From: Candidatus Magasanikiibacteriota bacterium
GTDB taxonomy: Bacteria; Patescibacteriota; Patescibacteriia; Magasanikbacterales; GWA2-37-8
Length of the DNA: 64,000 nt
Assembly: GCA_009694865.1 (NCBI GenBank)
Contig: SICD01000001.1
Location: 403-64,402 of the forward strand
Direction of reading: 5' to 3'
A program made the position numbers and the translations under genes. The notes under the pieces are model-generated. The model had not been told where the DNA came from. It saw only the letters and a program-made list of their open reading frames with translations, and did no database searches. How positions within the stretch are numbered: position 1 is the first letter of the stretch; every line of letters begins with the position of its first letter. This document shows positions 7,569-63,926 of this stretch, piece by piece.

Positions 7569-7584
7569 AGGATCTAATTTAAAT

Positions 7585-8970: not shown

Positions 8971-8973
8971 AGT

Positions 8974-13458: not shown

Positions 13459-15680
13459 TTTTGAATCATAAGTAGTTTTTCTTTTTCCTTTCCATACATC
13501 TCACTCCAAATCGCCTCCGTCACAAACGGCATAAACGGGTGCAGGAGCTTGAGCGACATAATAAGATTATGGAGAAGAATTTTTTTAGTATTATCCGCAA
13601 ACGCTTCGTCAACTAATTGCGTTTTGCTCGCCTCCAAATACACATCGGCCAATTTGTGCCACACAAAATCATAAATAGTTTGCGCCGCTTCGTGCAAACG
13701 AAACGCTTCAAGACCGCTCGTCACTCCCTCAATCGTTTGTTGTAATTCGAGAATAATGGTTTTATCGGCCTCAGTCTTCGTTTCAATCGATTTGGAGCTT
13801 GAAATTTGGAGCTTGGAAACTTCCAGATTTGTCAAAACAAATCTGGCGATGTTCCACAACTTATTCGCGAAATGCTTCATACCCTTAACCTTATCTTCCG
13901 CCAACGGAATATCGTTACCCGCCGCAGTGGAAAACACCAGCGCGAAACGAAGCGCGTCCGTACCATAGGTATCAATAACTCCTAACGGATCAATCACATT
14001 CCCCTTACTTTTGCTCATTTTCTGACGATCTTTATCGCGCACCAGGCCATGCAAAAATATTTTTTCAAATGGCGGTTTGCTAGTTCGATAATATGACATC
14101 ATTACCATTCTAGCCACCCAGAAAAAAATAATATCCCAACCAGTTTCCATTACTTGCGTAGGAAAATAGGTTTCAAAATCTTTGGTACCATGCTTGGCAT
14201 CATTCGCCATAAGCGTGGCGTACGGCCACTGACCGGACGAAAACCAAGTGTCGAAAGTATCAGGATCATGAATAATTTCTGTAGAATCACAATGCGGGCA
14301 GACTGTCAGAGTATTCTCAACATCAACAATCACACCATTCTTCATTCGACATTCGTCATTCTGCATTCGCTGACAGTACCACACTGGCAGCGGTATCCCC
14401 CACCAAATTTGGCGGCTAATTGGCCAATCGCGAATATTTTCCATCCAGTGACGATATGTTTTTTCGAATTTCTCCGTAACAATCTCTACTTCTTTTTTGT
14501 CGAGCGCCTGGACGGCCATATCGCGAAGCGAAGGGCGGCCATCGGGCAATTGCTTGGTCATGGCAATGTACCACTGCGGCACAATTTGCGGCTCAATGAG
14601 ATTACCACATTTGTAGCAGAGCTGGACATTGTGCTTATATTTATCATCAATATGGTCTACCAACCCTTTGCCTTGTAGTTTCTCCACAATTTTAACGCGC
14701 GCGTCCAAAATTTTCATACCCGAAAACTCTCCGGTCATCGGGAGCATTTTACCTCGTTTGTCTATTACCTGTTCAACATCCAATTTGTGCCGCTCCGCAA
14801 TCTCAAAATCCACCGCCGAGTGTGCTGGAGTGATGGTCATAACGCCGGTACCAAATTCCATATCCGCGGCTTCATCTTTTATAACGGTGGCGGTAATGGA
14901 TCCGTTAATCCATTCTAAATTTAATTTATCACCATGTTTATACCGGGTGTAGCGCTTATCATCCGGATGCATAACAACATATTTATCGCCAAATTTTGTT
15001 TCGGGACGCGATGTGCCAATAACAAACGGACCGTATTTAAAATAATAAAATTGTTCTTGGCGCTCTTCATATTTCGTTTCTAAATCTGCCAAACCGGTTT
15101 GATGCTTGGGACACCAATTGCAAATACGACCCGCACGATAAATTAGACCATCGGCGTACATTTGTTTAAACGTGGCGTAAACGACTTTAACAATTTCCGG
15201 ATCAAGACTAAAAATATTTCGGCTCCAATCGCATGACGCCCCCAAACGGCGAATACCATTCTCGCTCAAATGCTTGTTATGTTGCACAAAATCCCAACAC
15301 GCTTTATAGAATTCCTCACGCGTCATTTTAAAACGGCTGGTGCCTTCTTTCTCTAATTTTTTTTCAAATACCACCTGGGTTTCAAAACCAGCGTGGTCGG
15401 TGCCCGGCAACCACAAAGCTCTGCGCCCGCGCATGCGGTGATACCGAGTTAAAATATCTTGAATTGTTAAACCCAAAGCATGCCCCACGTGCAAGGGAGC
15501 GTTGGCGTTGGGGAGCGGGAGCATTATCGTAAAGGGCCTTCGCTCCGCTTCGCTTAGATTATCCACCCAAGGCAGATGCGCCTCGGGCGCAAAAAAACCG
15601 CTGTCTTCCCAGCGCTTATAAATATCGGCCTCGTATTGGCCAGGGTCGTAAGCTTTAGCTAATTCTTCCATAGTCTCCAT
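13446..15680 (-). CDS. valS: Valyl-tRNA synthetase, short form (744 aa; the C-terminal coiled-coil appears absent). Its 3' end overlaps tyrS by 13 nt.
   Basis: PNANAPLHVGHALG...LWLPGTDHAGFETQ, WPISRQIWWGIPLPVWYC, KMSKSKGNVIDP. Confidence 0.85.
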   Translation of the reverse strand: METMEELAKAYDPGQYEADIYKRWEDSGFFAPEAHLPWVDNLSEAERRPFTIMLPLPNANAPLHVGHALGLTIQDILTRYHRMRGRRALWLPGTDHAGFETQVVFEKKLEKEGTSRFKMTREEFYKACWDFVQHNKHLSENGIRRLGASCDWSRNIFSLDPEIVKVVYATFKQMYADGLIYRAGRICNWCPKHQTGLADLETKYEERQEQFYYFKYGPFVIGTSRPETKFGDKYVVMHPDDKRYTRYKHGDKLNLEWINGSITATVIKDEAADMEFGTGVMTITPAHSAVDFEIAERHKLDVEQVIDKRGKMLPMTGEFSGMKILDARVKIVEKLQGKGLVDHIDDKYKHNVQLCYKCGNLIEPQIVPQWYIAMTKQLPDGRPSLRDMAVQALDKKEVEIVTEKFEKTYRHWMENIRDWPISRQIWWGIPLPVWYCQRMQNDECRMKNGVIVDVENTLTVCPHCDSTEIIHDPDTFDTWFSSGQWPYATLMANDAKHGTKDFETYFPTQVMETGWDIIFFWVARMVMMSYYRTSKPPFEKIFLHGLVRDKDRQKMSKSKGNVIDPLGVIDTYGTDALRFALVFSTAAGNDIPLAEDKVKGMKHFANKLWNIARFVLTNLEVSKLQISSSKSIETKTEADKTIILELQQTIEGVTSGLEAFRLHEAAQTIYDFVWHKLADVYLEASKTQLVDEAFADNTKKILLHNLIMSLKLLHPFMPFVTEAIWSEMYGKEKEKLLMIQKWPI

Positions 15681-27218: not shown

Positions 27219-28865
27219 TTATATCAAAGGCGTCCCCGTCATCTCTTTGGGCTGTGTAAGCCCCATAAGTTTTAAAACCGTCGGCGCGACATCCGCTAAA
27301 AATCCCACCGGCGGAAGCAAACTCAGATCCCCTTCCGGCGCGTCGCCACCTGGGCCGGCCTGACCGCGAAAATCAGCGCCGATGACGAGCAGGGGAACGG
27401 GATTGGTAGAGTGCTCTTTATCCATTTCACCAGTTTGCAAATTAATCACTTCTTCGGCATTGCCATGATCCGCTGTCATAATAACCACACCGCCAACCGC
27501 CAGTGTATGGCCTACAATATCGCCCAAACATTTATCAATGGTCTCACACGCGGCAATGGTGGCTTTGCGATCGCCGGTGTGGCCAACCATATCGGCATTG
27601 GCATAATTAATAACCACCAAATCAAACTTGCCGCTATCGATGGCTTTAATAGTTTTTTTTGTTACTTCGGACGCTGACATAGCTGGTACTTCGGCGTAAC
27701 TGGCCACATGCGGCGACGACACCAAAGCGCGCTCCTCGCCCGGAAAAGCTTCTTCAATTGTGCCATTCAAAAAAAATGTTACATGCGCGTATTTTTCCGT
27801 TTCCGCCGCGTGAAATTGCTTAAGACCGGCCAAACTAACGGCTTCAGCCAAACAATTACGCGCCACAATGGGCGCATAGGCCACTACCACCGGCAAATCT
27901 TTTTCATACTCCATCATGGTGACAAAAAATAACTTTTTTATGTCGCTGCGTTTAAATTTATCAAACCCGGGGAGTACAAAGGCTTTAGTGAGTTCGCGCG
28001 CGCGGTCGGGACGAAAATTAGCAAAAATAATAGCATCCCCATCAGTCACAGTCGCCACTGGCTTACCTGCCTCGCTCGCCTCGCTGGAGCTATGGCGAAG
28101 CGGGCCGGAGCCTTTGGCGGAGGCTGAATCACCATCCATAATCACGGTCGGCACAAATTCTTCATCATAATTTTTTTTCGCGTAGCTGGCTTTAATCGCC
28201 TCGGCGGGGCTAGTCGCGCTGCGTTCCGCTTTGCCTTCCGCCATTGCTTTGTAAGCCGCTTCAACTCGTTCCCAGCGGTTATCCCTATCCATGGCATAAA
28301 ACCGCCCCGAGAGCGAGGCGATCGCTCCAACTTTCAACTTTTTCAGCTTCGCTTCCAATTCTTTTACAAAACTTTCCCCGGCGCTATAAATACAGTCACG
28401 CCCATCTAAGATAACGTGGACAAAAACCTCTTTGCCTAAACCTTGCTTTTTACACAAATCCAAAAGTGCATAAAGGTGTTCATTGCTAGCGTGCACATTA
28501 CCGGAACTTAACATGGCAATAATATGGAGTTTGCTTTTATTCTTTTCCACGTGGGCAATCGCATCTAGAAAAGCCTTGTTCTTAAAAAATTCACCGCTCG
28601 ATATTTCTTGGTTAATGCGAGGACAGGATTGATAATAAACTCTACCCGCGCCAATATTAAGGTGCCCCACTTCCGAATTACCAATTTCACCAAATAAAAG
28701 ACCCACTTCGTTCCCCGAAGCGTGCAAGGTCATCGCCGGATACTCTTTAATATACGATTTAAAATTGGGCAACTTAGCCTGGGCAATAGCATTGCCATCG
28801 CTATCTGGCGCTACACCCCAACCGTCGCAGATGACAAGGGTAACTGGTTTGTAAGATTTACTCAT
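27219..28865 (-). CDS. gpmI: 2,3-bisphosphoglycerate-independent phosphoglycerate mutase (copy 1, 548 aa)
   Basis: iPGM motifs GNSEVGHLNIGAGRV and TADHGNAEE, with a metalloenzyme core. Confidence 0.85.
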   Translation of the reverse strand: MSKSYKPVTLVICDGWGVAPDSDGNAIAQAKLPNFKSYIKEYPAMTLHASGNEVGLLFGEIGNSEVGHLNIGAGRVYYQSCPRINQEISSGEFFKNKAFLDAIAHVEKNKSKLHIIAMLSSGNVHASNEHLYALLDLCKKQGLGKEVFVHVILDGRDCIYSAGESFVKELEAKLKKLKVGAIASLSGRFYAMDRDNRWERVEAAYKAMAEGKAERSATSPAEAIKASYAKKNYDEEFVPTVIMDGDSASAKGSGPLRHSSSEASEAGKPVATVTDGDAIIFANFRPDRARELTKAFVLPGFDKFKRSDIKKLFFVTMMEYEKDLPVVVAYAPIVARNCLAEAVSLAGLKQFHAAETEKYAHVTFFLNGTIEEAFPGEERALVSSPHVASYAEVPAMSASEVTKKTIKAIDSGKFDLVVINYANADMVGHTGDRKATIAACETIDKCLGDIVGHTLAVGGVVIMTADHGNAEEVINLQTGEMDKEHSTNPVPLLVIGADFRGQAGPGGDAPEGDLSLLPPVGFLADVAPTVLKLMGLTQPKEMTGTPLI

Positions 28866-29070: not shown

Positions 29071-30657
29071 TTACAGCAAGCTTCGTCCTGTCATTTCCTT
29101 CGGTTTCTTAATTCCCATTATTTTTAAAATCGTGGGAGACACGTCCGCCAGTTTGCCTTTTTTAAGGTTTCGAGATTTTAGCTTAAATTGTTTATGTACG
29201 GACGCAGGCGCTATAAACACAAATGGCACGGGATTTACCGAATGCTCCGTATCAACTTCGTCGGTCTTGAGGTTTACCATTTCTTCGGCATTACCATGAT
29301 CGGCGGTTATAACACATTGCCCTCCAGCCTTGAGGACACTCTGTGCCACGCGGTTAAGCTGTTTGTCAAGAATCGCAATCGCCTTTTCGGCGGCCGCAAT
29401 ATTCCCCGTGTGCCCCACCATGTCGGCATTGGCAAAATTAACCGCGATAAAATCATATTCCCGCGCTTCAATTGCTTTCACGGCGTAGGTGGCGATTTTA
29501 TCCGCTTCCATCGCCGGGTCAGTTTCAAAATCTTTCACGCGATCCGAAGCAATTTTTACCCACCGCTCATCGCCAAAATGCTGTTGGTAGCCGCCATTAA
29601 AAAAATAAGTGACGTGCGCGAACTTTTCTGATTCAGCGAGATATAATTGCCGGCGCGGACACAAAGTCTGTACCAAAGTATTAGGAATGTCACGACTCGG
29701 AAACGCTGTGAGTACACGCGGAAAATCCGGACCAAAATCCGCCATCGCCACAAACCGAGTATTTTTCGGCACAATTTTTCGATCAAACGTTCCGCCATTT
29801 TCCTTCTCAAACTGCGGATGCACAAACGCCTTCGTAATCTGCCGCGCCCGGTCACTGCGCAAATTAAAAAAGAAAATCGCGTCGTTACTTTTTATCGTCG
29901 CCACTGGTTTATTATTTTCAACAATCACCATGGGCGTAATAAACTCATCACTTTCACCAGAATTATACGCTTGCGTTAGTGCCTCTTCCGCGCTATTTGC
30001 CTGCTTACCTTTGCCTTCAACCATCGCCCGGTACGCCTTTTGTGTCCGGTGCCAAATTTTATTACGATCCATCCCGTATAACCGCCCCATCACCGTCGCA
30101 ATTTTCTCCGTGCCGTGAAAATGATTTTGTAAATGTTTAAGATGATGCGGCGCGTCGTGTTGACCAGAATCCCGCCCATCGGTAAATAAATGCAAATACA
30201 CTTTTTTAATTCCCTCCTGATGAATTAAACCCAAAAGCGCGAACAGGTGCTCCGGACAGGAATGCGCGCTGTTGTGATTCGAGAGCAATCCCATCAAATG
30301 CACCGCCGTTTTGTATTTTTTTACATGGTGCAGTGCTTCGTGAAACGCATTATTCTTAAAAAACGTACCGTCATTAATCGCATCGGTAATATACAGCGTA
30401 TCTTGTTTTACAACTCGCCCCGCCCCAATATTCAAATGCCCGGCTTCACTATTCCCCTCCTGCCCGCGCGGCAATCCGACGGCGACACCGCTCGCCTCAA
30501 GAAGAGTGTGGGGATATTTTTTCCACCAACCAAAAAAATTCGGCGCCGTTTTGGGCGTAATAGCGTTGCCCTTTTGTTTTGGGTCAGCCATGCCAAAGCC
30601 GTCGAGGATAATGAGGATGGTGATTGGTGATTTTGTAGGCATAATATTTCGTAACAA
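29071..30657 (-). CDS. gpmI: 2,3-bisphosphoglycerate-independent phosphoglycerate mutase (copy 2, a divergent paralog of 528 aa)
   Basis: GNSEAGHLNIGAGRV, ITADHGNAEE. Collinear with copy 1 but clearly diverged. Confidence 0.8.
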   Translation of the reverse strand: MLRNIMPTKSPITILIILDGFGMADPKQKGNAITPKTAPNFFGWWKKYPHTLLEASGVAVGLPRGQEGNSEAGHLNIGAGRVVKQDTLYITDAINDGTFFKNNAFHEALHHVKKYKTAVHLMGLLSNHNSAHSCPEHLFALLGLIHQEGIKKVYLHLFTDGRDSGQHDAPHHLKHLQNHFHGTEKIATVMGRLYGMDRNKIWHRTQKAYRAMVEGKGKQANSAEEALTQAYNSGESDEFITPMVIVENNKPVATIKSNDAIFFFNLRSDRARQITKAFVHPQFEKENGGTFDRKIVPKNTRFVAMADFGPDFPRVLTAFPSRDIPNTLVQTLCPRRQLYLAESEKFAHVTYFFNGGYQQHFGDERWVKIASDRVKDFETDPAMEADKIATYAVKAIEAREYDFIAVNFANADMVGHTGNIAAAEKAIAILDKQLNRVAQSVLKAGGQCVITADHGNAEEMVNLKTDEVDTEHSVNPVPFVFIAPASVHKQFKLKSRNLKKGKLADVSPTILKIMGIKKPKEMTGRSLL

Positions 30658-39692: not shown

Positions 39693-40955
39693 TTAGATAG
39701 TCACCAAACAGACCAAAAGCCCCAACAGCGCCACGGTTTGCACAATAATATGGGGATGTTGGCGACGAAACTCAATAACGATATTTAAAACTAATACCAG
39801 GCTAAAAAATATAAGGAAACCTAAATAAATTCCCTGCGACGCGGAAAATAACCATTTAAACGACGGCAAAACTTGCGCGTTAAAATATTGCTCCATCGGG
39901 CTGGGGGCGGTAACTTTGACAGTATACCAATCAATACTATCAGTCACTTCCTGTCCTTGGGGCGCACGAATTATAATACTCGGAATAATAATCGGATGAA
40001 AAAAAGTCTCTGGCGACAAGGGAACTCGGAGGTCGGCTGTCCAATCATCGCTCGCCGGGTCGGATGTAAGCGGAATTGAATACTGCCCCACAATCACGCT
40101 CGCCCCGGCCACCGGCCCAGTCAAACGCGCTTTAATAGTGAGAACTGTTTGGTTATTATCCCCCGCCCAAAAAACATGGGAGTGTTCTTTATCAATTGCC
40201 GGAAGGTTTTGCGCAACTGGAGCACTGACTTTTTCTCCCTTTACCTTTGGAGCCAAAGCTAAACGACTGGTCGCGCTTGGTACGGTAGAGTGTGCCGCTG
40301 GTTTAGCAACAATTAAATTCGACGCAGTCGCGACAACAAGGGGAGGGGCTCCAAAATGCTGGGCCACAAATACCGTGGGAATTCCACTGTACTCACCCGC
40401 TTCTAGCCCCAAACCAAACTCACGATAATCGGCGTCGAGTAAATTTTGATAATGCGTTGGACTTTTCAGCCAAGCCCCAATTACTTCTTCGCCGCTTTTA
40501 AATCCCATGGCCAAATTTTCCCCGGCCACACCATAACGATATCCGGCTTGGCTTAAAAAATACTGCAGGGTATGTGCTTTAGGCCCAAAATGGCTAAAAT
40601 AATTATTCTCGGCCATGTCATTGGCTTTGGCCGTGGCCGAACTATTTAATTTGTTCTGGACGATAAGCTCCGGAAGGCCGTGCTGGGCACGCGCACTATT
40701 CGTGAGGTCAATAATGTTTTGATAATGCACCGCCAAAACATCCGGCGCCAAATAGGCCCGCGCGGGAATAAATAACACTGTGACAAAAACAATCAATTTT
40801 AAACCCAAAAAAACCGTGCTATAAAAAATAGCGCGTTTGGTGTGCAAAATGTGCGGGTGGTAGTTATTCCCATGATGGGGAATAAAAAAGTCGTGTAACT
40901 TTGAAGACATAATCGCAAGCCCCCCCCTCGAGGGGGCGGTTGTATTGATTAACAA
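39693..40955 (-). CDS. Membrane protein with a CAP (SCP/PR-1, YkwD-like) domain
   Basis: N-terminal TM. CAP signature ...NDMAENNYFSHFGP...GENLAMG...WLKSPTHYQNLL...DYREFGLG.... C-terminal TM helices. Confidence 0.65.
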   Translation of the reverse strand: MLINTTAPSRGGLAIMSSKLHDFFIPHHGNNYHPHILHTKRAIFYSTVFLGLKLIVFVTVLFIPARAYLAPDVLAVHYQNIIDLTNSARAQHGLPELIVQNKLNSSATAKANDMAENNYFSHFGPKAHTLQYFLSQAGYRYGVAGENLAMGFKSGEEVIGAWLKSPTHYQNLLDADYREFGLGLEAGEYSGIPTVFVAQHFGAPPLVVATASNLIVAKPAAHSTVPSATSRLALAPKVKGEKVSAPVAQNLPAIDKEHSHVFWAGDNNQTVLTIKARLTGPVAGASVIVGQYSIPLTSDPASDDWTADLRVPLSPETFFHPIIIPSIIIRAPQGQEVTDSIDWYTVKVTAPSPMEQYFNAQVLPSFKWLFSASQGIYLGFLIFFSLVLVLNIVIEFRRQHPHIIVQTVALLGLLVCLVTI

Positions 40956-41947
40956 AATTCTTCGGCCATTTCAATAAGCCGATGCGCGTACCCGGCTTCG
41001 TTATCGTACCAGGCCACTACTTTAACTAAGTTACCACCAACAACGTTCGTGAGTGCCAAATCTACCGTGGCCGAATATGTGTTGCCAATAAAATCGGATG
41101 AAACGAGTGGCTCATTTGTTACTGCCAAAATATTTTTAAACCGCGGCGACTCGGCCGCCTTCGTCAAAGCCGCATTAATTTGCTCCTTCGTCACGTCACG
41201 TTTAAGAACTGCCGTGATATCAGAAAGTGAAACCGTGGTCACTGGCACACGAATGGCGACTCCGTCAAAAATACCATGAAGCTCGGGGATGGCTTCCGTC
41301 GTGGCCAGTGCGGCTCCGGTCGTGGTCGGGACAATATTCGCGGCGGCGGCGCGTGCCCGGCGCAAATCTTTATGCGGCCCATCCTGAAGATTTTGATCAG
41401 CAGTATACCCGTGCACTGTCGTCATCATCGCCTTCTCGATACCAAACGTGTCTTCTAAAACTTGCATCACCGGTGAAATGCAATTTGTTGTACACGACGC
41501 ATTATTTATCACCTTTACTTTTTCGCCTTTTACTTTTTTACTATTCACAGACATTACATATGTTGGCACATCACCGCCCTTGGCTGGCGCGCTAATAATC
41601 ACTTTCTTGGCTCCCGCTTTTAAATGGAGCCCGGCCCCCTCTTTATCCGTAAACCGCCCGGTACACTCCAGCACCACATCCACTTTTAATTTAGCCCACG
41701 GGAGCAGGCTTGGATCTTTTTCCGCAAACACCGGAATTTTTTTGGTGCCAATAATAATATTTTTTTCATCGTGAGAAATCGCCATCGGCCAGGTGCCATA
41801 GGCCGTGTCGTATTTTAAAAGATGCGCCAAGGTTTTGGTGTCGGTTAAATCGTTGATGGCCACAATTTTAATATCCTTTTTTAAAAACGCGGCCTTAAGC
41901 GCTTGCCGCCCAATGCGACCAAAACCATTAATTGCGATGTTTGTCAT
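40949..41947 (-). CDS. gap: Glyceraldehyde-3-phosphate dehydrogenase
   Basis: INGFGRIGR near the N-terminus, the active-site motif ASCTTNCISP, and ...WYDNEAGYA... at the C-terminus. Confidence 0.9.
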   Translation of the reverse strand: MTNIAINGFGRIGRQALKAAFLKKDIKIVAINDLTDTKTLAHLLKYDTAYGTWPMAISHDEKNIIIGTKKIPVFAEKDPSLLPWAKLKVDVVLECTGRFTDKEGAGLHLKAGAKKVIISAPAKGGDVPTYVMSVNSKKVKGEKVKVINNASCTTNCISPVMQVLEDTFGIEKAMMTTVHGYTADQNLQDGPHKDLRRARAAAANIVPTTTGAALATTEAIPELHGIFDGVAIRVPVTTVSLSDITAVLKRDVTKEQINAALTKAAESPRFKNILAVTNEPLVSSDFIGNTYSATVDLALTNVVGGNLVKVVAWYDNEAGYAHRLIEMAEEFC

Positions 41948-41967: not shown

Positions 41968-42387
41968 TTAATAGAATTCTCTATAACGAAAAGCTCCGGG
42001 GTGCCCTTTAATATCCAACAATAGACTTTTGTGATAACCAAAATGGGATGAGGCAACCGCAAAATGCGTCTCCGCCATTTTCTTCAACAATTGTTCGTAC
42101 AGGGCTTTAGCTTTAGCCGGGCTCGCAATCGAAGATGACAAATGGACGAACGGGCTGATTAAAATATTCTGTACACCCAACTCCTCCGCTGTTTTCAGTA
42201 TCTCATGATATAAATCTACCAGCTGCTTAGTAGCATCGTCTTTCTCGGCGCAAAACAATACGCTCAAACACTGCGTCATTTTACCATTTGATCCTGAAGG
42301 ATCTTCCGGTTCAATAGCGACTGGTCGCGACGATGGTTCAACCAAGCGAGATTCAAACCGGTTAGTATGTAATAATAAAGCCCGCAT
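41968..42387 (-). CDS. Free-standing archaeal-type threonyl-tRNA synthetase editing domain (ThrRS-ed / tRNA-Thr_ED, DTD-like fold)
   Basis: MRALLLHTNRFESRLV..., ISPFVHLSSSIASP and SHFGYHKSLLLDIKGHPGAFR align with the N-terminal editing domain of archaeal ThrRS (MRVLLIHSDYIEYEV..., [34 protein letters not shown]). Confidence 0.7.
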   Translation of the reverse strand: MRALLLHTNRFESRLVEPSSRPVAIEPEDPSGSNGKMTQCLSVLFCAEKDDATKQLVDLYHEILKTAEELGVQNILISPFVHLSSSIASPAKAKALYEQLLKKMAETHFAVASSHFGYHKSLLLDIKGHPGAFRYREFY

Positions 42388-42412
42388 AAGTTAGCCTATA
42401 GTATACTCTATG

Positions 42413-43714
42413 TTAGAGTACTTTTGCAAAAACACACTTTAAATACTCCCCTTCCGTAAACGCCGCCAGTTCCGGGTGGTCAATGCCGTGGGTGAATGTT
42501 TCCAGTACTTGCACAGTCCTTCCGGCCCGAGCTGCCGCCTCCGACAACATAAACCTAAAATCCTCCAGCCGCACGTGAGCCGAGCATGAGCAGGTCAAAA
42601 GAATGCCCCCTGGCGGCAAAATGCGTAAAGCCATCTCATTAATTTTCCTGTATCCTTGTAACCCTTCTTTTATTTTGTGCCGATCTTTAACAAACGCTGG
42701 TGGGTCTAAAATAATCACATCAAATTCGCCCGACTGACAATCCGTTAGATATTCCTTCACATCCGCCAAAATAAATTCGCATTTTGATTCGTCCAATTTA
42801 TTTAATTTCACATTCTCTTCGGCCAGCTCAAGTGCTGGTTGCGAAGCATCCACGCTCACCACACTCTTAGCGCCCGCGCCGAGGGCATAAACTGAAAAAC
42901 CGCCGGTATAAGAAAAACAATTCAACACTTTTTTATTCATTACATATTTTTGTAGAGCCAAACGCTTATCCCGCTGATCCAAGAAAAACCCCGTTTTCTG
43001 TCCACCAATAATATCGACCCAAAACAAATAGCCGTTCTCTTTTATCTTTACTCTCTCCGGCACTTCGCCAAAAAGCAAACCGACTTTTTCGTTGTCATTC
43101 CGAGCGAAGTCGAGGAATCCCTTGGTTTGGCCAGGAGGGATTTCTCCACTGCGCTTCGCTTCGGTCGAAATGACAGAATGTGCGCTATGCCCCGTACGAC
43201 GTCCAACATCCGACCGCTCATAAATCCCTTTTGGTTTTAAAATCTTAACGAGCGCTTTCACAATCAAATCTTTCCAATGTTCGATCCCCGGATTATGAAA
43301 CTGAACGGAAAGATACTCGGCGTATTTATCAACAATTAGCCCCGGCAACAAATCATTTTCCGCGTGGATTAATCGATACGCGTTCGTCTGTGTCCCCCTG
43401 CCCGAGGGGGACTGTAGGGGGGAGGGAGTGTTGGCGACAAAATCTTTGCGCAACTCATAAGCCCGTTTGAGGCGTTTCTCAAAAAATTCCGCGTCAACCA
43501 TCTCCTCTTTATCCCAACTCCAAATCCGCACCGCGATTTGCGAATACGAATTAAAAAAACCCTGCGCCAAAAAATTGCCTTGCTCATCGTGGAGTACTAC
43601 CGGCTCGCCGCTCGTGAGTCCTTCCGGAATATTTTTCAACGCGCCCGAAAACACCCACGGATGCCTTCCGCGAATTGGTCCAACACGTTCTTTTTTAACT
43701 ATTAGTGTAACCAT
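42413..43714 (-). CDS. rlmI: PUA-domain class I SAM-dependent rRNA (m5C) methyltransferase, RlmI-like, carrying in-frame repeat insertions
   Basis: N-terminal PUA-like VKKERVGPIRGRHPWVFSG and a SAM-methyltransferase core (...DPPAF...). MITE 43092-43176 and a GC hairpin at 43391-43410 are read through in-frame. Confidence 0.7.
   Translation of the reverse strand: MVTLIVKKERVGPIRGRHPWVFSGALKNIPEGLTSGEPVVLHDEQGNFLAQGFFNSYSQIAVRIWSWDKEEMVDAEFFEKRLKRAYELRKDFVANTPSPLQSPSGRGTQTNAYRLIHAENDLLPGLIVDKYAEYLSVQFHNPGIEHWKDLIVKALVKILKPKGIYERSDVGRRTGHSAHSVISTEAKRSGEIPPGQTKGFLDFARNDNEKVGLLFGEVPERVKIKENGYLFWVDIIGGQKTGFFLDQRDKRLALQKYVMNKKVLNCFSYTGGFSVYALGAGAKSVVSVDASQPALELAEENVKLNKLDESKCEFILADVKEYLTDCQSGEFDVIILDPPAFVKDRHKIKEGLQGYRKINEMALRILPPGGILLTCSCSAHVRLEDFRFMLSEAAARAGRTVQVLETFTHGIDHPELAAFTEGEYLKCVFAKVL
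43092..43176. repeat. MITE family A copy inserted in-frame within rlmI
   Basis: ttgtcattccgagcgaagtcgaggaatcccttggtttggccaggagggatttctccactgcgcttcgcttcggtcgaaatgacag. Confidence 0.65.
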
Positions 43715-43809
43715 AAGAATGCACGCATTATACCATTTTTAGGCCTAAAAAACAAGAGACGCCTTCAAGGCGTCTCTACTTTAATAGACCTGATAACTTT
43801 ATGAACTTG

Positions 43810-53944: not shown

Positions 53945-55468
53945 TCAGTGGGATACCGCTCGCCGCGGGACAATTTGTCTCGTTCTTCGTTTTCTATGAA
54001 ACGTAATCGCGAACCGGTGCGCTTCGTCGCGAACCTGAATTAATAATCTCTGATGCCGAGTAACCCACGCAATAAATTCCGGACTCTTATCTCCTAAAAT
54101 TATATCGTTACGTTTGCGCTCTCTCCCTTTGGCAATACCGACGATTGGAATTCTGCGCACAGACGCATTGCTATGCGTCTCTACAAAGTTCCGCGCCCGA
54201 CTCACTTGCGGCCGTCCCCCGTCAATCAAAATGACATTTGGGAACTGCCATTCCGCGTGCTTAAACCGGCGCTCCAAAACTTCTGCCAATGAATCAACAT
54301 CACTCTGCCCAAAAACAGTTTTAATAATAAACTTTCGATACTCCGATTTCACCGGACCCTCCTCATTAAACACCACCATACTCCCCACTTTTTCGGAAGC
54401 ACCTAAGTTGGAAATATCATAACCTTCGATTCGGAGCTTCCTCTCCCCCCGAGCCCCCTCTCTGGCAGAGGGGGACACACCGCCTCCCCCTCTTTCTAAG
54501 AGGGGGCGTGGGGGAGTTGCCGTCGCCGTGTCAACAAAACTCTTATTCAAAAGCGCAATATCCTGAATTCTACGCAGAGAGTGTAATTGGTCACGCAGTC
54601 TCGCCGCGTCTTCAAACCGCTCGTCTTTCCCCGCCCGCTTCATCTCCATTTCAAAAATTTTAATAACCTGCTTTTTCCGACCTGACAAAAATGTCACCAG
54701 CGGCCGAATGATCTGCCGTCGATACTCGGCTGAACTAATCTCACCCGTGCACACCCCCGGACACCACCCCATTTGGCGATACAGGCACACTCGACTTCCA
54801 GGCACACAATTACTAAACCGAAACATCCGCCGCAACAACTTCATCGCCGCCTTCGTATTCAACCCCGGATACGGCCCAAAAACATAGGCAAAGGCGTCAT
54901 CACGAGCGAGCTTAAGGCGAGCGTCGTGATCCCCTTGCTGTAAAAACTTATTTAGTTCGGGGGATTGCGACGTCGCTGCGCTCCTCGCAATGACGCTGTA
55001 CTCCCGCTCCCGCATTGTCAAAACTTTTGGATATTCGTCTTTGCTGACGAGAATATAATTCCAACTCTTATCATCCTTTCCATCCACATTATACTTGGGC
55101 TGGAATTTTTTAATGTACTCCGCTTCCAAAATAATCGCCTCAAGCGCCGACTCGGTCTCCTTCCACTTAATATCTACCACCTCATGAATCATTCCCTCAA
55201 TCGGACGACTCACAACCGCACTGTCATTCTGAGCGGAGGCTCGCGCCGTAGTCGAAGAATCCCTCTCACCGTGGTAAGGGGATTTCTCCACTTCGTTCCT
55301 TTGTCGCTGTGGTCGGAATGACAATCGAAAATACGACCGCACCCGACTCCGGAGCGACGTCGCCTTGCCCACATACACCAATTCTTTTTGGGAATTATAA
55401 AAAAGATATACCCCCGGCGAATCTGGCAAACTAACTAAAATTTTACCGACACCATCTGCCTTATCCAT
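53945..55468 (-). CDS. uvrC: Excinuclease ABC subunit C, with in-frame repeat insertions
   Basis: GIY-YIG N-terminus (PGVYLFYNSQKELVYVGKA) and a UvrC RNaseH-like/endonuclease C-terminal region. The hairpin cluster 54425-54520, the A3 half-element 54959-54995 and MITE 55221-55324 are all translated in-frame. Confidence 0.85.
   Translation of the reverse strand: MDKADGVGKILVSLPDSPGVYLFYNSQKELVYVGKATSLRSRVRSYFRLSFRPQRQRNEVEKSPYHGERDSSTTARASAQNDSAVVSRPIEGMIHEVVDIKWKETESALEAIILEAEYIKKFQPKYNVDGKDDKSWNYILVSKDEYPKVLTMREREYSVIARSAATSQSPELNKFLQQGDHDARLKLARDDAFAYVFGPYPGLNTKAAMKLLRRMFRFSNCVPGSRVCLYRQMGWCPGVCTGEISSAEYRRQIIRPLVTFLSGRKKQVIKIFEMEMKRAGKDERFEDAARLRDQLHSLRRIQDIALLNKSFVDTATATPPRPLLERGGGGVSPSAREGARGERKLRIEGYDISNLGASEKVGSMVVFNEEGPVKSEYRKFIIKTVFGQSDVDSLAEVLERRFKHAEWQFPNVILIDGGRPQVSRARNFVETHSNASVRRIPIVGIAKGRERKRNDIILGDKSPEFIAWVTRHQRLLIQVRDEAHRFAITFHRKRRTRQIVPRRAVSH
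54959..54995. repeat. Half copy of MITE subfamily A3 in-frame within uvrC
   Basis: gggggattgcgacgtcgctgcgctcctcgcaatgacgc. Confidence 0.55.
55221..55324. repeat. MITE family A copy in-frame within uvrC
   Basis: ctgtcattctgagcggaggctcgcgccgtagtcgaagaatccctctcaccgtggtaaggggatttctccacttcgttcctttgtcgctgtggtcggaatgacaa. Confidence 0.65.
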
Positions 55469-57260: not shown

Positions 57261-60092
57261 CTATTTAAGCACACGTTTAAGGTATTGCCCGGTGAAAGAA
57301 GCGGATTTCTTAGCAACTTCTTCCGGTGTCCCGCTGGCAACAACCTCACCCCCCTTATCCCCCCCCTCCGGCCCCAAATCAATAATCCAATCCGCGCATT
57401 TAATCACATCCAAATTATGTTCAATCACCATCACGGTATTCCCTTGTCCAACAAGTCGTTGGAGCACATCAAGCAACTTCCGCACATCATCATAATGCAA
57501 ACCCGTCGTCGGCTCATCCAGCAAATACAACGTCTTAGTCGTGCCGTGTTTTGCCAACTCCCGGCTAAGTTTAATCCGCTGTGCTTCCCCGCCCGACAGC
57601 GTCGTTGCCGATTGTCCCAAGGTTAAATAATCCAACCCCACCTCATTTAACATTTTCAATTTATCTTCCACCAGCGGAATATCTTTAAAAAACTCTTCCG
57701 CGTCTTCAATTGTCATGTTCAAAACATCCGAAATATTCTTGTCTTTATAATGCACCTGTAAAATTTCGTTGGTAAACCGTTTGCCGCGGCACACATCACA
57801 AATAATTTGCACGCTCGGCAAGAAATGCATCTCAATTTCTAAATTTCCTCGGCCTTCACAGTTTTCACAACGCCCACCTGGGACGTTAAAGCTAAATTTA
57901 CCAGATTTGTACCCCCGAATTTTTGCCTCTGGAGTTGACGCGAATAATTCCCGAATAAAATCGAAGGCTTTCGTATACGTCGCCGGGTTACTACGCGGCG
58001 TGCGCCCAATCGCGCTCTGGTCAATCGTAATCATCCGATCAATATATTCGGTCCCGGTGATTTCCAAATGCTTGCCGACCGATTTATTAAGACGAAATAA
58101 ACGATTGTTAATCGAGCGATGCAAAATATCGTGCATTAAAGTAGATTTTCCCGATCCGGAAACACCGGTAAGGCATACAAACCGTCGCAGAGGAATCTCC
58201 ACGGTAATATTTTTCAAATTATGTTCCGTCGCTTTCTTAATTTTAATTTTCGGCGTCGCCCCATCTACTTTCCGTCGCTTTTCGGGTACAGGAACTTTTA
58301 ATTCGCCGCGGAGGTATTGGCCGGTGAGAGATTTTGCTGGGTCGCCTTGGGTAGCGGCAAATACGGACTGCCCCCTCGAGGGGGCCTCACGGGGGTGTAA
58401 GACCGCTGCGTGGCCGTTTCGACTTCGCTCAAGGCCACCCTGAGCAAGGTCGAATTGGTGGCGGTCGTCGATTGAGCGACGCAAAGGACTCACACCCCCC
58501 CGAACGCCCTGCGGGGCGCCCCCCTCGAGGGGGGATTTGGCGAGCATCACCTCTAACGGCCCCGAAAACACCACTTCCCCACCATGCTTCCCCGCCCCCG
58601 GTCCAATGTCCACAATCCAATCACTCACCATAATCGTATCCTCATCATGCTCCACAACAATAATGGTATTCCCCACATCACACAAATTCCGGAGCGTCCT
58701 CACTAGTCGGTCGTTATCCCGTTGATGCAACCCAATCGTTGGTTCATCCAGTACATACAAAGCACCAACCAGTCGCGTGCCCACTTGTGATGCTAACCGA
58801 ATACGCTGTGCCTCACCTCCCGACAGAGTGCCCGCTTTCCGATTAAGTGTTAGATAATGCAAACCAACATCAAACATGAACTGCAAACGATTGCAGACTT
58901 CCTTCAATACCGCCCCGGCAATTTCGCGTTGCGTTTCCGGCAATTCCATATCCACGCTCGCAAAAAATTCCCGCGCTTCGGCAATCGATAAATTTGTTAC
59001 TTCCCAAATATTTTTATCCACCACTTTCACGCTCAAGGCCGTGGCGTTTAACCGCTTGCCTTTACACACCGGACACTCTTCTTCACTGAATAATTCTTTA
59101 GTGCCCAAACCAGTACACGCTTGGCAATAACCATAAGGACTGTTAAAACTAAACAACCGCGGTTCAATTTCCGGAAAACTAAAACCATCTTTAGGGCAAG
59201 AATATTCGGTGCTATAAATATGTTCCTCGCCGCTGGGGTACAAGACCGTACAAAGGCCGTTGGAAAGTTCCACCGCATTGGCTACTGCTTCGCCCAAACG
59301 CTGTTCAACGTCTTTCTTTGTCATCCCGACAGAGGCTCGCGCCGACGAGGTCGAAGATCCTCCGAGGAGGAGATCTCTGTCTATCGTTTGGTGAGCCAGA
59401 GATTTCTCCTTCGCCGTCGAAATGACAGACAACGCTGCCATTGGAATTTTATCAACAATTACTTCAATAGTATGTTTATCATTTTTTTCTAAAATAACCC
59501 GTTCACGCAAACTTTTTATATTGCCATCCACTCGCACCTCTAAATATCCGGAATTATAAACATCATACAACATCTGATAATATTCGCCTTTGCGTCCGCG
59601 TACTACCGGAGAAAATAAAATTAATTCAGGAGCCTTTTTTGTTTTCCCACCATCTTGTTTTAGTGCTTTTTTAATTTTTTCTATCATCTGATCGGTCGTC
59701 ATTTTCTGAATTTTCGTGCCACAAAGCGGACAATGCGGCTCGCCTACTCGGGCAAATAAAACACGGAGATAATCATAAATCTCCGTGATCGTCGCCACGG
59801 TGGAACGCGGATTCGCACTGTGCGCTTTTTGATCGATCGAAATTGCCGGCGACAACCCTTCAATTTCATCCACATCCGGCTTTTGCATGCCACCCAAAAA
59901 CTGCCGCGCGTAAGCCGACAAACTTTCAATATACCGCCGCTGACCTTCCGCAAAAATCGTATCAAAAGCCAAGCTCGATTTTCCCGAACCTGATAATCCT
60001 GTAAACACAATCATTTTATTCCGCGGCAGTTCCAAATTAATATTCTTGAGATTGTGTTCTCGCGCCCCTTTGATTATAATTTTGTCTTGCAT
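57261..60092 (-). CDS. uvrA: Excinuclease ABC subunit A, with in-frame repeat insertions
   Basis: The start [20 protein letters not shown] is the canonical UvrA N-terminus (ATG at 60090-60092). It has two ABC ATPase modules and zinc-finger Cys clusters. MITE 59318-59428 and the two ccccctcgaggggg hairpin regions at 58371-58384 and 58519-58534 are translated in-frame. Confidence 0.9.
59318..59428. repeat. MITE family A copy in-frame within uvrA
   Basis: ttgtcatcccgacagaggctcgcgccgacgaggtcgaagatcctccgaggaggagatctctgtctatcgtttggtgagccagagatttctccttcgccgtcgaaatgacag. Confidence 0.65.
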
Positions 60093-60100
60093 GTGATTCG

Positions 60101-60182
60101 ACAGAATCATGCCGAGCAATGTCCTTTGAAGCTCGGCGGATTTAACAGAATCATGCCGAGCAATGTCCTTTGAAGCTCGACG
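60101..60182. repeat. Tandem duplication (2 copies of 38 bp, period 44) of a hairpin-containing 38-mer in the uvrA 5' leader
   Basis: acagaatcatgccgagcaatgtcctttgaagctcg[g/a]cg at 60101-60138 and 60145-60182. Each copy contains the stem gccgagc/gctcggc. Confidence 0.65.
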
Positions 60183-60570: not shown

Positions 60571-62931
60571 CTACCCATTGCCCCCGACCACTCGGTCGGG
60601 TTTTTTATTAGAGAGCGCTTTGATTTTCGGCGTTCCCGAAACTTTCACCCTCGTCCGCAATTCCCGCAACTCATCCCTGAGTATCGCCGCCAACTCAAAC
60701 TCTAACCCCTTCGCCGCCTCCCGCATCTGTTTCTCTTTATCTTTAATAATTTCCTCCATCGGCCGCGCATCGCCGAGCAAATCCAAATCAAGAGTTGAAA
60801 TCGCTCCGGTGCGGCCTTTTAGCCCTCTCCCGGCTCTCGCGCCTTTTGAGCCTTTAGCATTTCCCCCATCTCGACTAACACCAAACTCTTCGAGAATATT
60901 CCTAATTGTTTTTTCAATCGTCTTCGGCGTAATGCCATGTTCTTTATTATACGCCAACTGAATTGTGCGACGACGGTCTGTTTCTTTAATCGCTCGTTCC
61001 ATGGAACCCGTCATATTATCCGCATACAACACTACTTGCCCATTCACATTCCGCGCCGCCCGGCCAATCGTCTGAATGAGTGACGTTTCACTGCGCAAAA
61101 ATCCTTCTTTATCCGCGTCTAAAATTGCCACCAGTGATACCTCGGGCATGTCAAGCCCTTCGCGCAACAAGTTAACCCCCACCAACACATCATGTTTACC
61201 CAGCCGCAAATCCATAATAATCTCAATCCGTTCCAACGTGAGCACATCACTATGAATATACGCCACTTTAATTTTTTTCTCTTTTAAATACTCCGTTAAA
61301 TCCTCCGCCATTTTTTTCGTGAGGGTGGTCACGAGCACTCGCTCACCCTGCTTAATCCGTTCGTCGATGCGGATAAGGAGGTCCTCGACTTGCGACTTTC
61401 CTAAATTGTCATTCTGAGCCCCGTCAGGGGTGGCCGAAGAATCTTCCTTTTTTCTATTCGGAAGATCCTTCGCTCCGCTCAGGATGACATTTTTATTTTT
61501 ACCGGTGATGGGCCTCACCACCACCTCTGGATCAATCAACCCCGTCGGCCGCACCACCTGCTCCACAACTTGCTCACTTTCCTTAATTTCATAGGGTGTT
61601 GGCGTAGCAGACACGTACACAAGCTGTCCCACACGCTCTTCAAATTCCTTATACTGAAGCGGCCGATTATCACGCGCACTGGGAAGACGAAAACCATGCT
61701 CAACCAGAGTATCTTTGCGTGCCCGGTCGCCATTATACATCCCTCTGATTTGAGGAACGGTAACGTGGGACTCGTCGATGATGGTGAGGAACCCCCGAGA
61801 CATCCCCTCACCCGACCTCTCCCGCGGGGAGAGGAGGCGCTTCCCCTCGCCCCGCGGGAGAGGGACGGAGGGTGAGGGTTCGGTCGCACTATACCTAAAA
61901 TAATCCAACAACGTAAACGGCGGCTCCCCTTCCGCGCGCCCTTCAAAATGCCGCGAATAATTTTCAATGCCGTTGCAATACCCAATATTTTTTATCATCT
62001 CCAAATCATACGCCACTCGCCGCTTTAACCGTTCATATTCCAAAACTTTCCCCTGCCGTTCAAACACCGCGAGTTGTTCGTCGAGCTCGCTTTTGATTCT
62101 CGCAAACGCCTGTTGACGAGAGGCCTCACTCACCACATAATGCTTCGCCGGAAAAAACCAAACATCAGACTCGCGCCTGATGTTTGTCCTGAGGCCGCGC
62201 ACGGCCGAAGGACCCCTCTCATCAACATCCGAACTAGCAAGAACCGCCCGAGTAACACGATCTAATTTTTCAATTCGGTCGATATGGCTCGAGATCTCGA
62301 ATCGATAAATCGCATCCTCATTCACCGGCATTATTTCAAACACCTGCCCGTGCAACCGAAAACTGCCCCGCTTTAGTTCGCTGTTCGTCCGCTCAAATTG
62401 CATCGCGACCAATTGTTCCAACATCGCCCGCCGATCAAGTTCATCCCCCCGTCGCAAATGCAAAACAATTTTTTCATATTCTTTAGGAGACCCCAAACCG
62501 TAAATCGCCGAAACCGATGCCACAATAATAACATCCCGCCGCGTCAACAACGCCTGCGTACACGCATGCCGCAACCGATCAATCTCCTCGTTCACCTGCG
62601 CCTCTTTTTCAATATAAGTATCACTCCCCGGCATATACGCCTCGGGCTGGTAGTAATCATAATAACTAACAAAATATTCTACCGCGTTATCAGGAAAAAA
62701 TTCCCGAAATTCATTACACAACTGCGCCGCCAAAGTTTTGTTATGCGCAATAACAAGCGTTGGCATTTGCACCTGTTGAATCACATTCGCCATCGTAAAG
62801 GTCTTTCCCGAACCGGTTACGCCAAGCAATGTCTGCTTCCGCATTCCCTGCTCCAAACCCAAAACAAGCCTTTCAATGGCTTTGGGCTGGTCTCCATCTG
62901 GCTGGTATTTTGATTTTATTTTGAATTGCAT
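60571..62931 (-). CDS. uvrB: Excinuclease ABC subunit B, with in-frame repeat insertions
   Basis: The start [22 protein letters not shown] is the UvrB N-terminus (ATG at 62929-62931). Helicase motifs GVTGSGKT and the C-terminal UVR domain are present. MITE 61406-61490 and the family-B element 61803-61877 are read through in-frame (...[26 protein letters not shown]...). Confidence 0.9.
61406..61490. repeat. MITE subfamily A2 copy in-frame within uvrB
   Basis: ttgtcattctgagccccgtcaggggtggccgaagaatcttccttttttctattcggaagatccttcgctccgctcaggatgacat. Confidence 0.65.
61803..61877. repeat. Palindromic element family B copy in-frame within uvrB
   Basis: tcccctcacccgacctctcccgcggggagaggaggcgcttcccctcgccccgcgggagagggacggagggtgaggg. 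Nearly identical to 6747-6824. Confidence 0.65.
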
Positions 62932-62972
62932 GCTGTATGTGTCATTGCGAGGAGGAAAAAATCTACCGCCGA

Positions 62973-63056
62973 CTGTCATCCTGAGTCGGAGCGAAGGATC
63001 TAGTTCGATCAAAATGGCTTACCGACTAGATTCTTCATTTCATTCAGAATGACAGC
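62973..63056. repeat. MITE subfamily A2 copy (intergenic, between uvrB and xerC/D). A partial A3 terminus (tgtgtcattgcgagg) lies at about 62937-62951.
   Basis: ctgtcatcctgagtcggagcgaaggatctagttcgatcaaaatggcttaccgactagattcttcatttcattcagaatgacag. Confidence 0.65.
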
Positions 63057-63086: not shown

Positions 63087-63926
63087 TCACACATCCAACG
63101 GACTCACAATCCCCGCGATCGCCGTACTCGCCACATGCGTATAAATTTGCGTCGTCTGCAATTTGGCATGGCCCAACAATTCCTGAATATACCTAATATC
63201 CGTCCCCGCTTCCAAAAGATGCGTAGCGAAACTATGCCGCAACGTATGCGGCGAAACATTTTTTTGTATCCCCGCCTTCTGCGCCGCCGCACCCACAACT
63301 TTCTGAATCGTCGCTTCCGTTAGCCGACTACCTCTACCATTGGTAAAAAGATAATCATCCGCCATTTTTAATTTTTGTTGCTTTAACAAAATTTCTTTCA
63401 ACGCTTTCGGAATAATTGTCTGCCGATCCTTTTTCCCTTTCCCCTGATACACCCGCAAAATCATCCTGTCCAAATCCACATCTCGCATTTTAATGTGCGT
63501 CAACTCACTAACCCGCACTCCCGTGCCATATAAAAGAGAAATAATACAATTGTGTTTAGGGTTTTCCGTCACCTCAATAATTTTGGCCACCTCCGCCTTA
63601 GACAAAACATTGGGCAAATGCTTTTCTTTTTTCGCGCGTGGCAAATTTACAAAAAACCTGCGATACAAAATCTTACCAAAATAAAATAACAGCGCGCTGT
63701 ACGCTGTATTTATAGTAGAAGCAGAAAAATCTTCGCTACTCAAATACTCCAAATATGCCCTCACGTCAGCCTGCGAAACGCTCCGCGCATCTTTATTAGC
63801 AAAACGCAAAAACTCTCCCACATAATGTAAGTAACTTTTAATGGTTTTAACACTGAACCCTCGCAAAACCATCTCCTGCTTAAGCAAAATAACCGGATCC
63901 CTACTTGGCCGATAATGTGTATCCAT
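63087..63926 (-). CDS. Tyrosine site-specific recombinase, XerC/XerD family
   Basis: N-terminal SAM-like core-binding domain. C-terminal catalytic motifs ...HTLRHSFATHLLEAGTDIRYIQELLGHAKLQTTQIYTHV. Confidence 0.8.
   Translation of the reverse strand: MDTHYRPSRDPVILLKQEMVLRGFSVKTIKSYLHYVGEFLRFANKDARSVSQADVRAYLEYLSSEDFSASTINTAYSALLFYFGKILYRRFFVNLPRAKKEKHLPNVLSKAEVAKIIEVTENPKHNCIISLLYGTGVRVSELTHIKMRDVDLDRMILRVYQGKGKKDRQTIIPKALKEILLKQQKLKMADDYLFTNGRGSRLTEATIQKVVGAAAQKAGIQKNVSPHTLRHSFATHLLEAGTDIRYIQELLGHAKLQTTQIYTHVASTAIAGIVSPLDV

Follow-up and report, generated by a model that had tools for sequence, protein, structure and literature searches.

A free-standing tRNA-Thr-ED protein from a Magasanikbacteria genome as a candidate accessory proofreading factor shared by bacteria and archaea

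A 64,000-nucleotide stretch of DNA from Candidatus Magasanikiibacteriota bacterium (the window; positions 403 to 64,402 of the forward strand of contig SICD01000001.1, assembly GCA_009694865.1) contains the gene for a protein of 139 amino acid residues that is homologous, as a free-standing protein, to the editing domain at the N-terminus (NTD) of the threonyl-tRNA synthetase (ThrRS) of archaea. The domain, known as tRNA-Thr-ED, folds like D-aminoacyl-tRNA deacylase (DTD). Both of the side chains that hold the substrate's serine moiety in synthetase-borne domains are replaced throughout the clade of this protein, which leads us to lean toward the reading that it is an accessory, horizontally exchanged proofreading factor with this fold, and not a built-in replacement for the editing function of ThrRS. 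The most probable role of the protein would be that of an NTD-type aminoacyl-tRNA deacylase, working in trans as a homodimer. Its dimerization, catalysis, action in trans and substrate are all predicted from homology with the domains of P. abyssi, M. jannaschii and A. pernix.

Trans-editing factors decide the fidelity of translation in organisms with small genomes. The specificities observed so far for the DTD-like fold are for D-aminoacyl-tRNA (DTD), Ala-tRNA-Thr (ATD) and Ser-tRNA-Thr (NTD). A fourth branch, found across bacteria of the Candidate Phyla Radiation (CPR) and DPANN archaea and with an altered amino-acid pocket, is a reasonable target for biochemistry. It also offers a clean example of the exchange of translation components between CPR and DPANN as single genes.

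Overall structure and family assignment

The gene runs from an ATG to a stop codon on the minus strand.

41968..42387, minus strand: coding sequence of a free-standing tRNA-Thr-ED protein (DTD-like fold), 139 aa, assigned from the open reading frame (ORF), Pfam, the fold and identity to a GenBank entry

The product of the ORF is identical to GenBank entry MSU74926.1 (EXS55_00190), from a metagenome-assembled genome (MAG) of Candidatus Magasanikbacteria bacterium. The gene is intact, with a start and an end that are common to more than 80 clusters of homologs of 138–139 aa (47–60% identity).

A search with Pfam profiles gives a match to PF08915 (tRNA-Thr_ED) with an E value of 2.2e-22 and a score of 80.1 bits, compared to a gathering threshold of 30.2 bits. 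Residues 1–136 are aligned with positions 1–135 of the 137 positions in the profile, and the anticodon-binding domain PF03129 was not found in the ORF by this search. Among the entries of the Protein Data Bank, phmmer finds the editing domain of P. abyssi ThrRS (1y2q) with an E value of 3e-15, together with those of M. jannaschii and A. pernix (E values from 3e-15 to 1e-10). With the NCBIfam models, the ORF matches residues 1–131 of the model for archaeal threonine-tRNA ligase, and its score for the Ser-tRNA(Thr) hydrolase model (NF011500) is 39.3 bits, far below the cutoff of 362.

An earlier reading of the window from its letters alone (the sequence-only reading) had recognized three blocks of motifs typical of the editing domain in archaeal ThrRS. 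All three are confirmed in the ORF, and consist of MRALLLH (residues 1–7), PFVHLSSSIASP (residues 79–90) and FGYHKSLLLDIKGHP (residues 116–130). The proposal made there, of a free-standing homolog of this DTD-like domain in a bacterial genome, was to be abandoned if neither PF08915 nor a DTD-like fold could be matched. It is borne out by the match to nearly the full Pfam profile, by the fold (see below) and by the bacterial nature of the contig. There is no covalent fusion to the class II core and HGTP domain of a synthetase, as the ORF of 139 aa is bounded by a stop codon and unrelated genes are located 20–25 nt away on either side.

The AlphaFold2 model of the protein, calculated with 35 homologs, has a mean pLDDT of 94.2. 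The best match found by Foldseek is the NTD of P. abyssi ThrRS (PabNTD, 3pd4), with a TM score of 0.91, an rms distance of 1.6 Å and an E value of 1e-14. For the four NTD structures 3pd4, 1y2q, 4rrf and 4rr6, the TM scores are 0.87–0.91 and the rms distances 1.6–2.1 Å. Structures of D-Tyr-tRNA deacylase (DTD) rank next, with E values of about 1e-6.

The ORF therefore has the same fold and belongs to the same Pfam family as the archaeal ThrRS NTDs (P. abyssi 1y2q, 2hl1 and 3pd4; M. jannaschii 4rrf; A. pernix 4rr6). The H-L-S, F-G-[YW]-x-K and K-G-H-P motifs are common to both, and RNA-assisted hydrolysis at the dimer interface is presumably shared. In contrast to these domains, however, the ORF is unfused, the sequence identity is only about 29–30%, and it is found in a separate clade.

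The fold raises the alternative that the protein is a deacylase of D-aminoacyl-tRNA (or Gly-tRNA-Ala) that replaces DTD or DTD2 in the small genomes of CPR and DPANN. DTD (PF02580) and its animal paralog ATD belong to the same fold superfamily as the ORF; they are deacylases that act as free-standing homodimers and recognize the tRNA by its acceptor end alone. Like DTD, the protein is free-standing, has no domain for binding the tRNA body, and occurs in bacteria as well as archaea. Its TM scores to the DTDs of E. coli, H. influenzae and P. falciparum are about 0.7, and residues 87–126 give weak matches to PF02580 and TIGR00256. However, both matches are below their cutoffs (20.3 versus 25 bits for PF02580, 17.4 versus 101.5 for TIGR00256), and the structural match to the NTDs is eight orders of magnitude better. 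The characteristic motifs of DTD are the cross-subunit Gly-cisPro (N-x-G-P) and SQFTL. The equivalent loop in the ORF is K-G-H-P-G-A-F, with a histidine between the Gly and the Pro as in the NTDs, and there is no SQFTL-type motif. Because of this loop and the sub-threshold PF02580 score, a DTD-like chiral proofreader is improbable.

The amino-acid pocket and the predicted reaction

The ORF was aligned to PabNTD together with its close family, diverse representatives of the stand-alone proteins, and the N-termini of full-length archaeal ThrRSs. The segments of interest are the following, with residue numbers for the ORF.

42133..42153, minus strand: codons for PFVHLSS (residues 79–85), equivalent to Pro80-Phe81-Ala82-His83 of PabNTD, with roles taken from PMC4491819
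42028..42042, minus strand: codons for FGYHK (residues 116–120), equivalent to Phe117-Gly118-Tyr119-Tyr120-Lys121 of PabNTD
41989..42009, minus strand: codons for KGHPGAF (residues 127–133), the cross-subunit loop, from the alignment to PabNTD
42304..42333, minus strand: codons for SSRPVAIEPE (residues 19–28), a loop with the motif S-x-x-P-x-G-I-x-P-E, from the alignment

The residues associated with catalysis are retained. The PFVHLSS block adjoins the scissile bond, by equivalence with PabNTD, and His83 is kept in it while Ala82 is replaced by Val. Lys121 is kept in the FGYHK block, and Gly-His-Pro in the KGHPGAF loop. Across the clade, His82 (His83 in PabNTD), Lys120 (Lys121), Phe116-Gly117-Tyr118 and the K-G-H-P loop are invariant or nearly so. 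A productive site in PabNTD requires His83 and Lys121, with the lysine positioning the catalytic water, and the 2′-OH of A76 assists catalysis in the ThrRS editing domain (PMC4491819).

The residues that contact the amino acid are different. Two side chains of PabNTD hold the serine moiety, those of Tyr120 and Glu134, which were described as completely conserved (Ahmad et al. 2015, PMC4491819); Glu134 holds the α-amino group of the substrate (PMC4491819). In the close family, Tyr120 is replaced by His (100%, invariant in the clade), Glu134 by Phe (94%), Ala82 by Val (97%) and Pro116 by His (89%), all in PabNTD numbering. The ORF itself carries these four replacements, with His119 and Phe133 at the positions of Tyr120 and Glu134, and is not a ThrRS editing domain in the strict sense. 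Among 238 relatives, the Tyr/Glu pair is present in 21 of the 23 long (fused) proteins with a readable motif, whereas the stand-alone proteins mostly have His/Phe, His/Val or Asp/Val at positions 120 and 134. The ThrRSs of DPANN archaea keep Glu134 in 120 of 121 cases and Tyr120 in 102 of them. Judged from these alignments, the replacements of Tyr120 and Glu134 signal a different selective regime.

The S-x-x-P-x-G-I-x-P-E loop is an additional feature of the stand-alone clade. It is conserved there, with Ser19 and Pro22 invariant, but not in the synthetase-borne domains, and residues 19–28 have pLDDT values of 84–91 in the AlphaFold2 model.

In the proposed mechanism, a mis-acylated tRNA would be attacked at its 3′ end, in trans, by the homodimer. 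PFVH (residues 79–82) and FGYHK (residues 116–120) would form the pocket for the aminoacyl-A76, to which the other subunit would contribute its GHP loop. Lys120 would position a water for hydrolysis of the ester, assisted by the 2′-OH of the tRNA, and His82 would be located at the carbonyl group. As the protein has no anticodon-binding domain, the choice of tRNA would have to come from the acceptor end.

The substrate may be something other than Ser-tRNA(Thr). We see Ser-tRNA(Thr) as possible, and a different substrate or a wider range of substrates as somewhat more likely. Candidates are another mis-acylated tRNA, recognized through its acceptor end, and an acyl-tRNA without a free α-amino group, the latter because the anchoring Glu is replaced by Phe. 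A more specific proposal would be that the His120/Phe134 clade is a trans deacylase with a substrate other than Ser-tRNA(Thr), traded as a single gene between DPANN and CPR for fidelity or detoxification. This proposal is a tentative one, which we hold with less than even confidence.

Relationship to other free-standing tRNA-Thr-ED proteins

An exhaustive search of representatives at 50% identity finds 433 clusters with E values of 1e-3 or less, mostly of about 140 aa. The best 150 of the 433 clusters are mostly stand-alone proteins of 135–145 aa, and archaeal full-length ThrRSs enter the list only from E values of about 1e-10. A word-indexed search finds 92 clusters, almost all of them 138–139 aa long and 47–60% identical to the ORF, and several of these are already named by the NCBI annotation. 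Stand-alone copies are therefore numerous and diverse.

Free-standing tRNA-Thr-ED proteins were described earlier, and "a wide distribution ... among prokaryotes" was stated for them in Text S1 of Mukai et al. 2017 (mBio, PMC5424206). Their pocket residues around the aminoacyl-adenosine are conserved except for the equivalent of Glu135 in the M. jannaschii domain (Glu134 in PabNTD), and in the view of these authors they may hydrolyze aminoacyl- or hydroxyacyl-tRNAs. Data Set S1 of the same paper includes KKR49220.1 from Candidatus Magasanikbacteria GW2011_GWC2_40_17 and EKD43573.1 (ACD_72C), as well as groups from Bacteroidetes, Deltaproteobacteria, Nitrospira and Microgenomates. KKR49220.1 (55% identical to the ORF) and EKD43573.1 (P0036 in our set, 57%) fall inside the clade of the ORF. 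The sequence-only reading had expected that a bacterial copy would be unusual. This view is not upheld, given the wide distribution and the Magasanikbacteria ortholog in the 2017 catalog and the 433 clusters found here.

The ORF is similar to the proteins of that catalog (Text S1, Fig. S4 and Data Set S1; see also Mukai 2022 Front Genet). They are single domains with a length of about 140 aa and lack an anticodon-binding domain, and among their pocket residues it is the equivalent of Pab Glu134 that is not conserved, the others being kept. There are differences from the individual groups, however. The groups that were treated in detail are archaeal and SepCysS-linked, and they keep W-Y-K, in comparison to His120/Phe134 in the clade of the ORF. 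The other bacterial groups (with HSFAHLS ... FGYF/FGQF) are without Lys121, whereas this clade keeps it. In the literature that was searched, no biochemical test of any free-standing tRNA-Thr-ED group was found, and nothing was found on CPR or Patescibacteria in combination with ThrRS editing. As a side observation, P0147 (643 aa) has a SepRS-like class II core (tRNA-synt_2d, SepRS_C) and an N-terminal tRNA-Thr-ED with the Tyr/Glu pair, and it matches the SepRS fusions described by Mukai et al. in 2017 and 2022.

A phylogeny of the domain, which the sequence-only reading had suggested as a check, was calculated by neighbor joining. In 199 of 200 bootstraps, the synthetase-type domains, comprising those of P. 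abyssi, M. jannaschii and Nanoarchaeum, a DPANN ThrRS, Sulfolobus ThrRS-ed and a SepCysS-linked protein of MSBL1, are split from all stand-alone proteins that are without the Tyr120/Glu134 pair. The stand-alone clade is, on the basis of this tree, an old paralog and not a piece recently detached from ThrRS.

The gene in the window is in itself one more member of a family that was catalogued in 2017, in a supplement, and that is named by the NCBI annotation pipeline in related genomes. What is new here is that the His120/Phe134 signature is consistent, that the clade is set apart from the synthetase-borne domains, and that there is direct evidence for recent DPANN-to-CPR transfer of the single gene.

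Comparison with ThrRS editing

The sequence-only reading had suggested that the protein may compensate for a ThrRS without the bacterial N2 editing domain. It would then be a trans-acting Ser-tRNA(Thr) deacylase, as crenarchaeal ThrRS-ed is for ThrRS-cat. In both sequence and fold, the protein is closest to domains that are known to act on Ser-tRNA(Thr), and the equivalents of His83 and Lys121 are retained. PabNTD can edit Ser without the side chains at positions 120 and 134, and an isolated editing domain is active alone in vitro (PMC4491819). The genomes of CPR bacteria are also reduced, in line with such a role.

Several observations weigh indirectly against compensation, however. ThrRS-ed (Korencic et al. 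2004; NF011500) is trans-acting and is built on the same editing domain, but it is a protein of about 390–570 aa that keeps Tyr120/Glu134 and has an anticodon-binding domain (as in P0186, P0194 and P0231). The ORF, with 139 aa, and its clade have neither, and the NF011500 score is low. The same clade is found in DPANN lineages whose ThrRS has an editing domain in cis: PF08915 is part of the synthetase in all 120 relatives listed for a Pacearchaeota ThrRS, which are the best 120 among 8000 candidates and come from Woese-, Pace-, Nano- and Aenigmarchaeota. The clade is moreover rare among species representatives and recently acquired in some of its hosts, which would be odd for an essential factor, and its gene never adjoins thrS in 58 loci. 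Compensation of an editing-less ThrRS is thus disfavored, and we regard it as unlikely. The rare and mobile pattern would be more in keeping with an accessory than with an essential factor.

With E. coli ThrRS and the catalytic part of the DPANN ThrRS P0241 as queries, tblastn finds no thrS gene, either in the window or among 66 loci that carry the family (about 630 kb); the sole match is to a class II protein in L031, with 23% identity. The gene provides no evidence that the Magasanikbacteria host has an unusual ThrRS.

Some of the data weigh against the reading as an accessory factor with a changed substrate. The Tyr120Ala and Glu134Ala mutants of PabNTD and ApNTD keep their activity as well as the discrimination between Ser and Thr (PMC4491819), and therefore the replacements in the clade are by themselves compatible with Ser-tRNA(Thr). 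The neighbor-joining tree is rough, and support for the nodes inside the clade is poor. In addition, the coexistence of the stand-alone clade with cis-editing ThrRSs is shown at the level of lineages (Woese- and Pacearchaeota) rather than of a single genome.

A ThrRS with two editing domains was observed among the relatives. P0313 (positions 3001-5217 of L073; Ga0209514_10000036, a DPANN-type contig of 330 kb) is a ThrRS of 738 aa with PF08915 at its N-terminus and a PF04073 (YbaK/ProX-type) domain. Two distinct deacylase folds are therefore present in one synthetase, and P0338 has the same architecture.

Distribution and gene transfer

The clade is rare. A pattern scan of 185,579 genomes, one for each GTDB species, finds only 18 loci, in Patescibacteria (Vogel-, Falkow-, Berkel- and Kuenenbacteria, and Paceibacterota), in MAGs labelled Woesearchaeota or Undinarchaeota, and in third party annotation (TPA) assemblies. 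The metagenomes at JGI contribute 44 further loci. No copy was found in IMG/VR, and viral carriage was not seen there. The labels of some entries look unreliable, including the TPA assemblies L009, L011, L012, L016, L021, L007 and L010, which are given as "uncultured Gammaproteobacteria" or "Woesearchaeota". L011 also encodes a short AlaRS of 617 aa and a coupling protein of a type IV secretion system.

Both domains of life carry the clade, as seen from the genes around it. The archaeal loci include L014 and L018, which are syntenic (Nre, deoxyhypusine synthase, GatD/GatE and an ATP-dependent DNA ligase), L024 (proteasome alpha subunit and an RFC-like clamp loader) and L039 (an Rpo3-like subunit without its C-terminal domain, and DUF655). 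The bacterial loci include L001 (HrcA-GrpE-DnaK-DnaJ, RecR, DnaB and a Mur ligase), L048 (NAD-dependent ligase) and L008 (sigma factor of the extracytoplasmic function type), and L050 also looks bacterial (Tgt). Members of the clade in Woesearchaeota-type archaea have identities of 50–83%, and those with an archaeal context are monophyletic in none of the 200 bootstraps.

The clearest case of transfer is L008 (PCYI01000001.1, Candidatus Vogelbacteria). Its tRNA-Thr-ED gene has 90% DNA identity to positions 4276-4694 of the archaeal locus L039, over exactly the coding region. The GC content of this gene is 0.31, compared to 0.50 for the rest of the contig, and it is located in a low-GC patch of about 3.5 kb (5650-9250), together with a tyrosine recombinase and an SDR gene. 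This copy looks like a very recent DPANN-to-CPR transfer. GC offsets of −0.10 to −0.19 are also observed in the higher-GC bacterial loci L031, L035, L001, L002 and L021, and none in low-GC hosts. An earlier case of translation genes exchanged between DPANN and CPR is that of TyrRS and TrpRS (Mukai et al. 2017, Life).

The sequence-only reading had raised archaeal-to-bacterial transfer for the copy in the window. Transfer is supported for the family by the DPANN copies, by the pair of L008 and L039, and by the GC offsets, but this does not extend to the window copy as a recent event. Its GC content is 0.43, compared to 0.47 for the window, and is inside the range of the neighboring genes. There is no sign of a recent arrival at this locus, and the copy is old enough to be ameliorated.

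Gene locus and neighborhood

The host contig is bacterial, as the window encodes EF-Ts, ribosomal protein S2, a class-I release factor, UvrA, UvrB and UvrC, ScpA and ScpB, and a D-Ala-D-Ala carboxypeptidase. DUF5674, which is typical of CPR, is encoded as well. The tRNA-Thr-ED gene is part of a run on the same strand, in the order PUA-SAM methyltransferase, tRNA-Thr-ED, GAPDH and a CAP-domain protein. Features around the gene are listed here.

42413..43714, minus strand: upstream gene, PUA and SAM-dependent RNA methyltransferase, with a gap of 25 nt; the neighbor is not conserved at other loci
40949..41947, minus strand: downstream gene, GAPDH, with a gap of 20 nt; the neighbor is not conserved at other loci
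42400..42429, minus strand: promoter-like TTGCAA-18-TATACT ending 13 nt before the ATG, a consensus match only
43755..43777, minus strand: strong terminator-like hairpin after tsf, with a 10-bp stem and then a T run, a consensus match only

The promoter-like site falls within the 3′ end of the methyltransferase gene. The terminator-like hairpin sets rpsB-tsf apart from the run of methyltransferase, tRNA-Thr-ED and gap genes.

A further alternative is that the protein has no role in the quality control of translation, being a decayed remnant of an archaeal thrS, a contaminant from binning or assembly, or a domain put to another use such as RNA binding. The fold is indeed re-used in other contexts, as P0120 (502 aa, on a 2.9-kb contig of a Logan assembly) has a stand-alone-type tRNA-Thr-ED with His120/Val134 fused to a radical-SAM domain, and no functional partner gene is conserved near the ORF. 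However, the ORF is of full length, with the same ends as its homologs in the more than 80 clusters, the model is very confident and the catalytic-site residues are invariant. The gene is also embedded among bacterial genes on a 64-kb contig, and its GC content is only 0.04 below that of the window. A pseudogene or a contaminant is excluded for practical purposes by the full-length ORF, the invariant site and the bacterial neighbors. Taken together, a function outside quality control is highly improbable.

The gene neighborhood was compared across 58 loci of the clade. No conserved operon partner was found among them, and no link to SepRS or SepCysS. No tRNA gene was found in the window and no tRNA-Thr gene in 20 loci, where it was sought for its discriminator base.

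A XerC/D-like recombinase adjoins the tRNA-Thr-ED gene in 8 of the 58 loci. The window also encodes a XerC/D-like recombinase, 43% identical to these, at a distance of 21 kb from the tRNA-Thr-ED gene. A cassette in which the recombinase moves together with this gene was considered. Between loci with 91% identical tRNA-Thr-ED, the recombinases are only 31% identical, and with this low identity and the distance of 21 kb in the window the co-moving cassette is rejected.

CysRS is encoded close to tRNA-Thr-ED in some bacterial loci. It is directly upstream in L001 (8632-10420, with a gap of 4 nt), and one gene away in L047 and L048 (6994-10417 of L048). This proximity is seen in two distant bacterial lineages, or 2 of about 35 informative loci, and is too thin to build on. 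It may nonetheless not be due to chance, because Mukai et al. link other tRNA-Thr-ED groups to the formation of Cys-tRNA.

In the archaeal loci L014, L018/L059, L024 and L033, a divergently transcribed regulator of the AsnC/Lrp type is conserved just upstream of the tRNA-Thr-ED gene. It has about 320 aa, with two winged helix-turn-helix domains and 44–69% identity. A small ORF without a Pfam match abuts or overlaps the start of tRNA-Thr-ED in L018 and L024.

Other genes of the window were noted in passing, all on the minus strand. Two tandem paralogs of cofactor-independent phosphoglycerate mutase (iPGM_N and Metalloenzyme domains) are located at 27219-28865 and 29071-30657. The class I aminoacyl-tRNA synthetase encoded at 13446-15680, from the Ile/Leu/Val/Met group, has only 744 aa, which is short for enzymes of this type. 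The genes for UvrC (53945-55468), UvrA (57261-60119) and UvrB (60571-63012) are clustered, and are followed by the XerC/D-like tyrosine recombinase (63087-63926).

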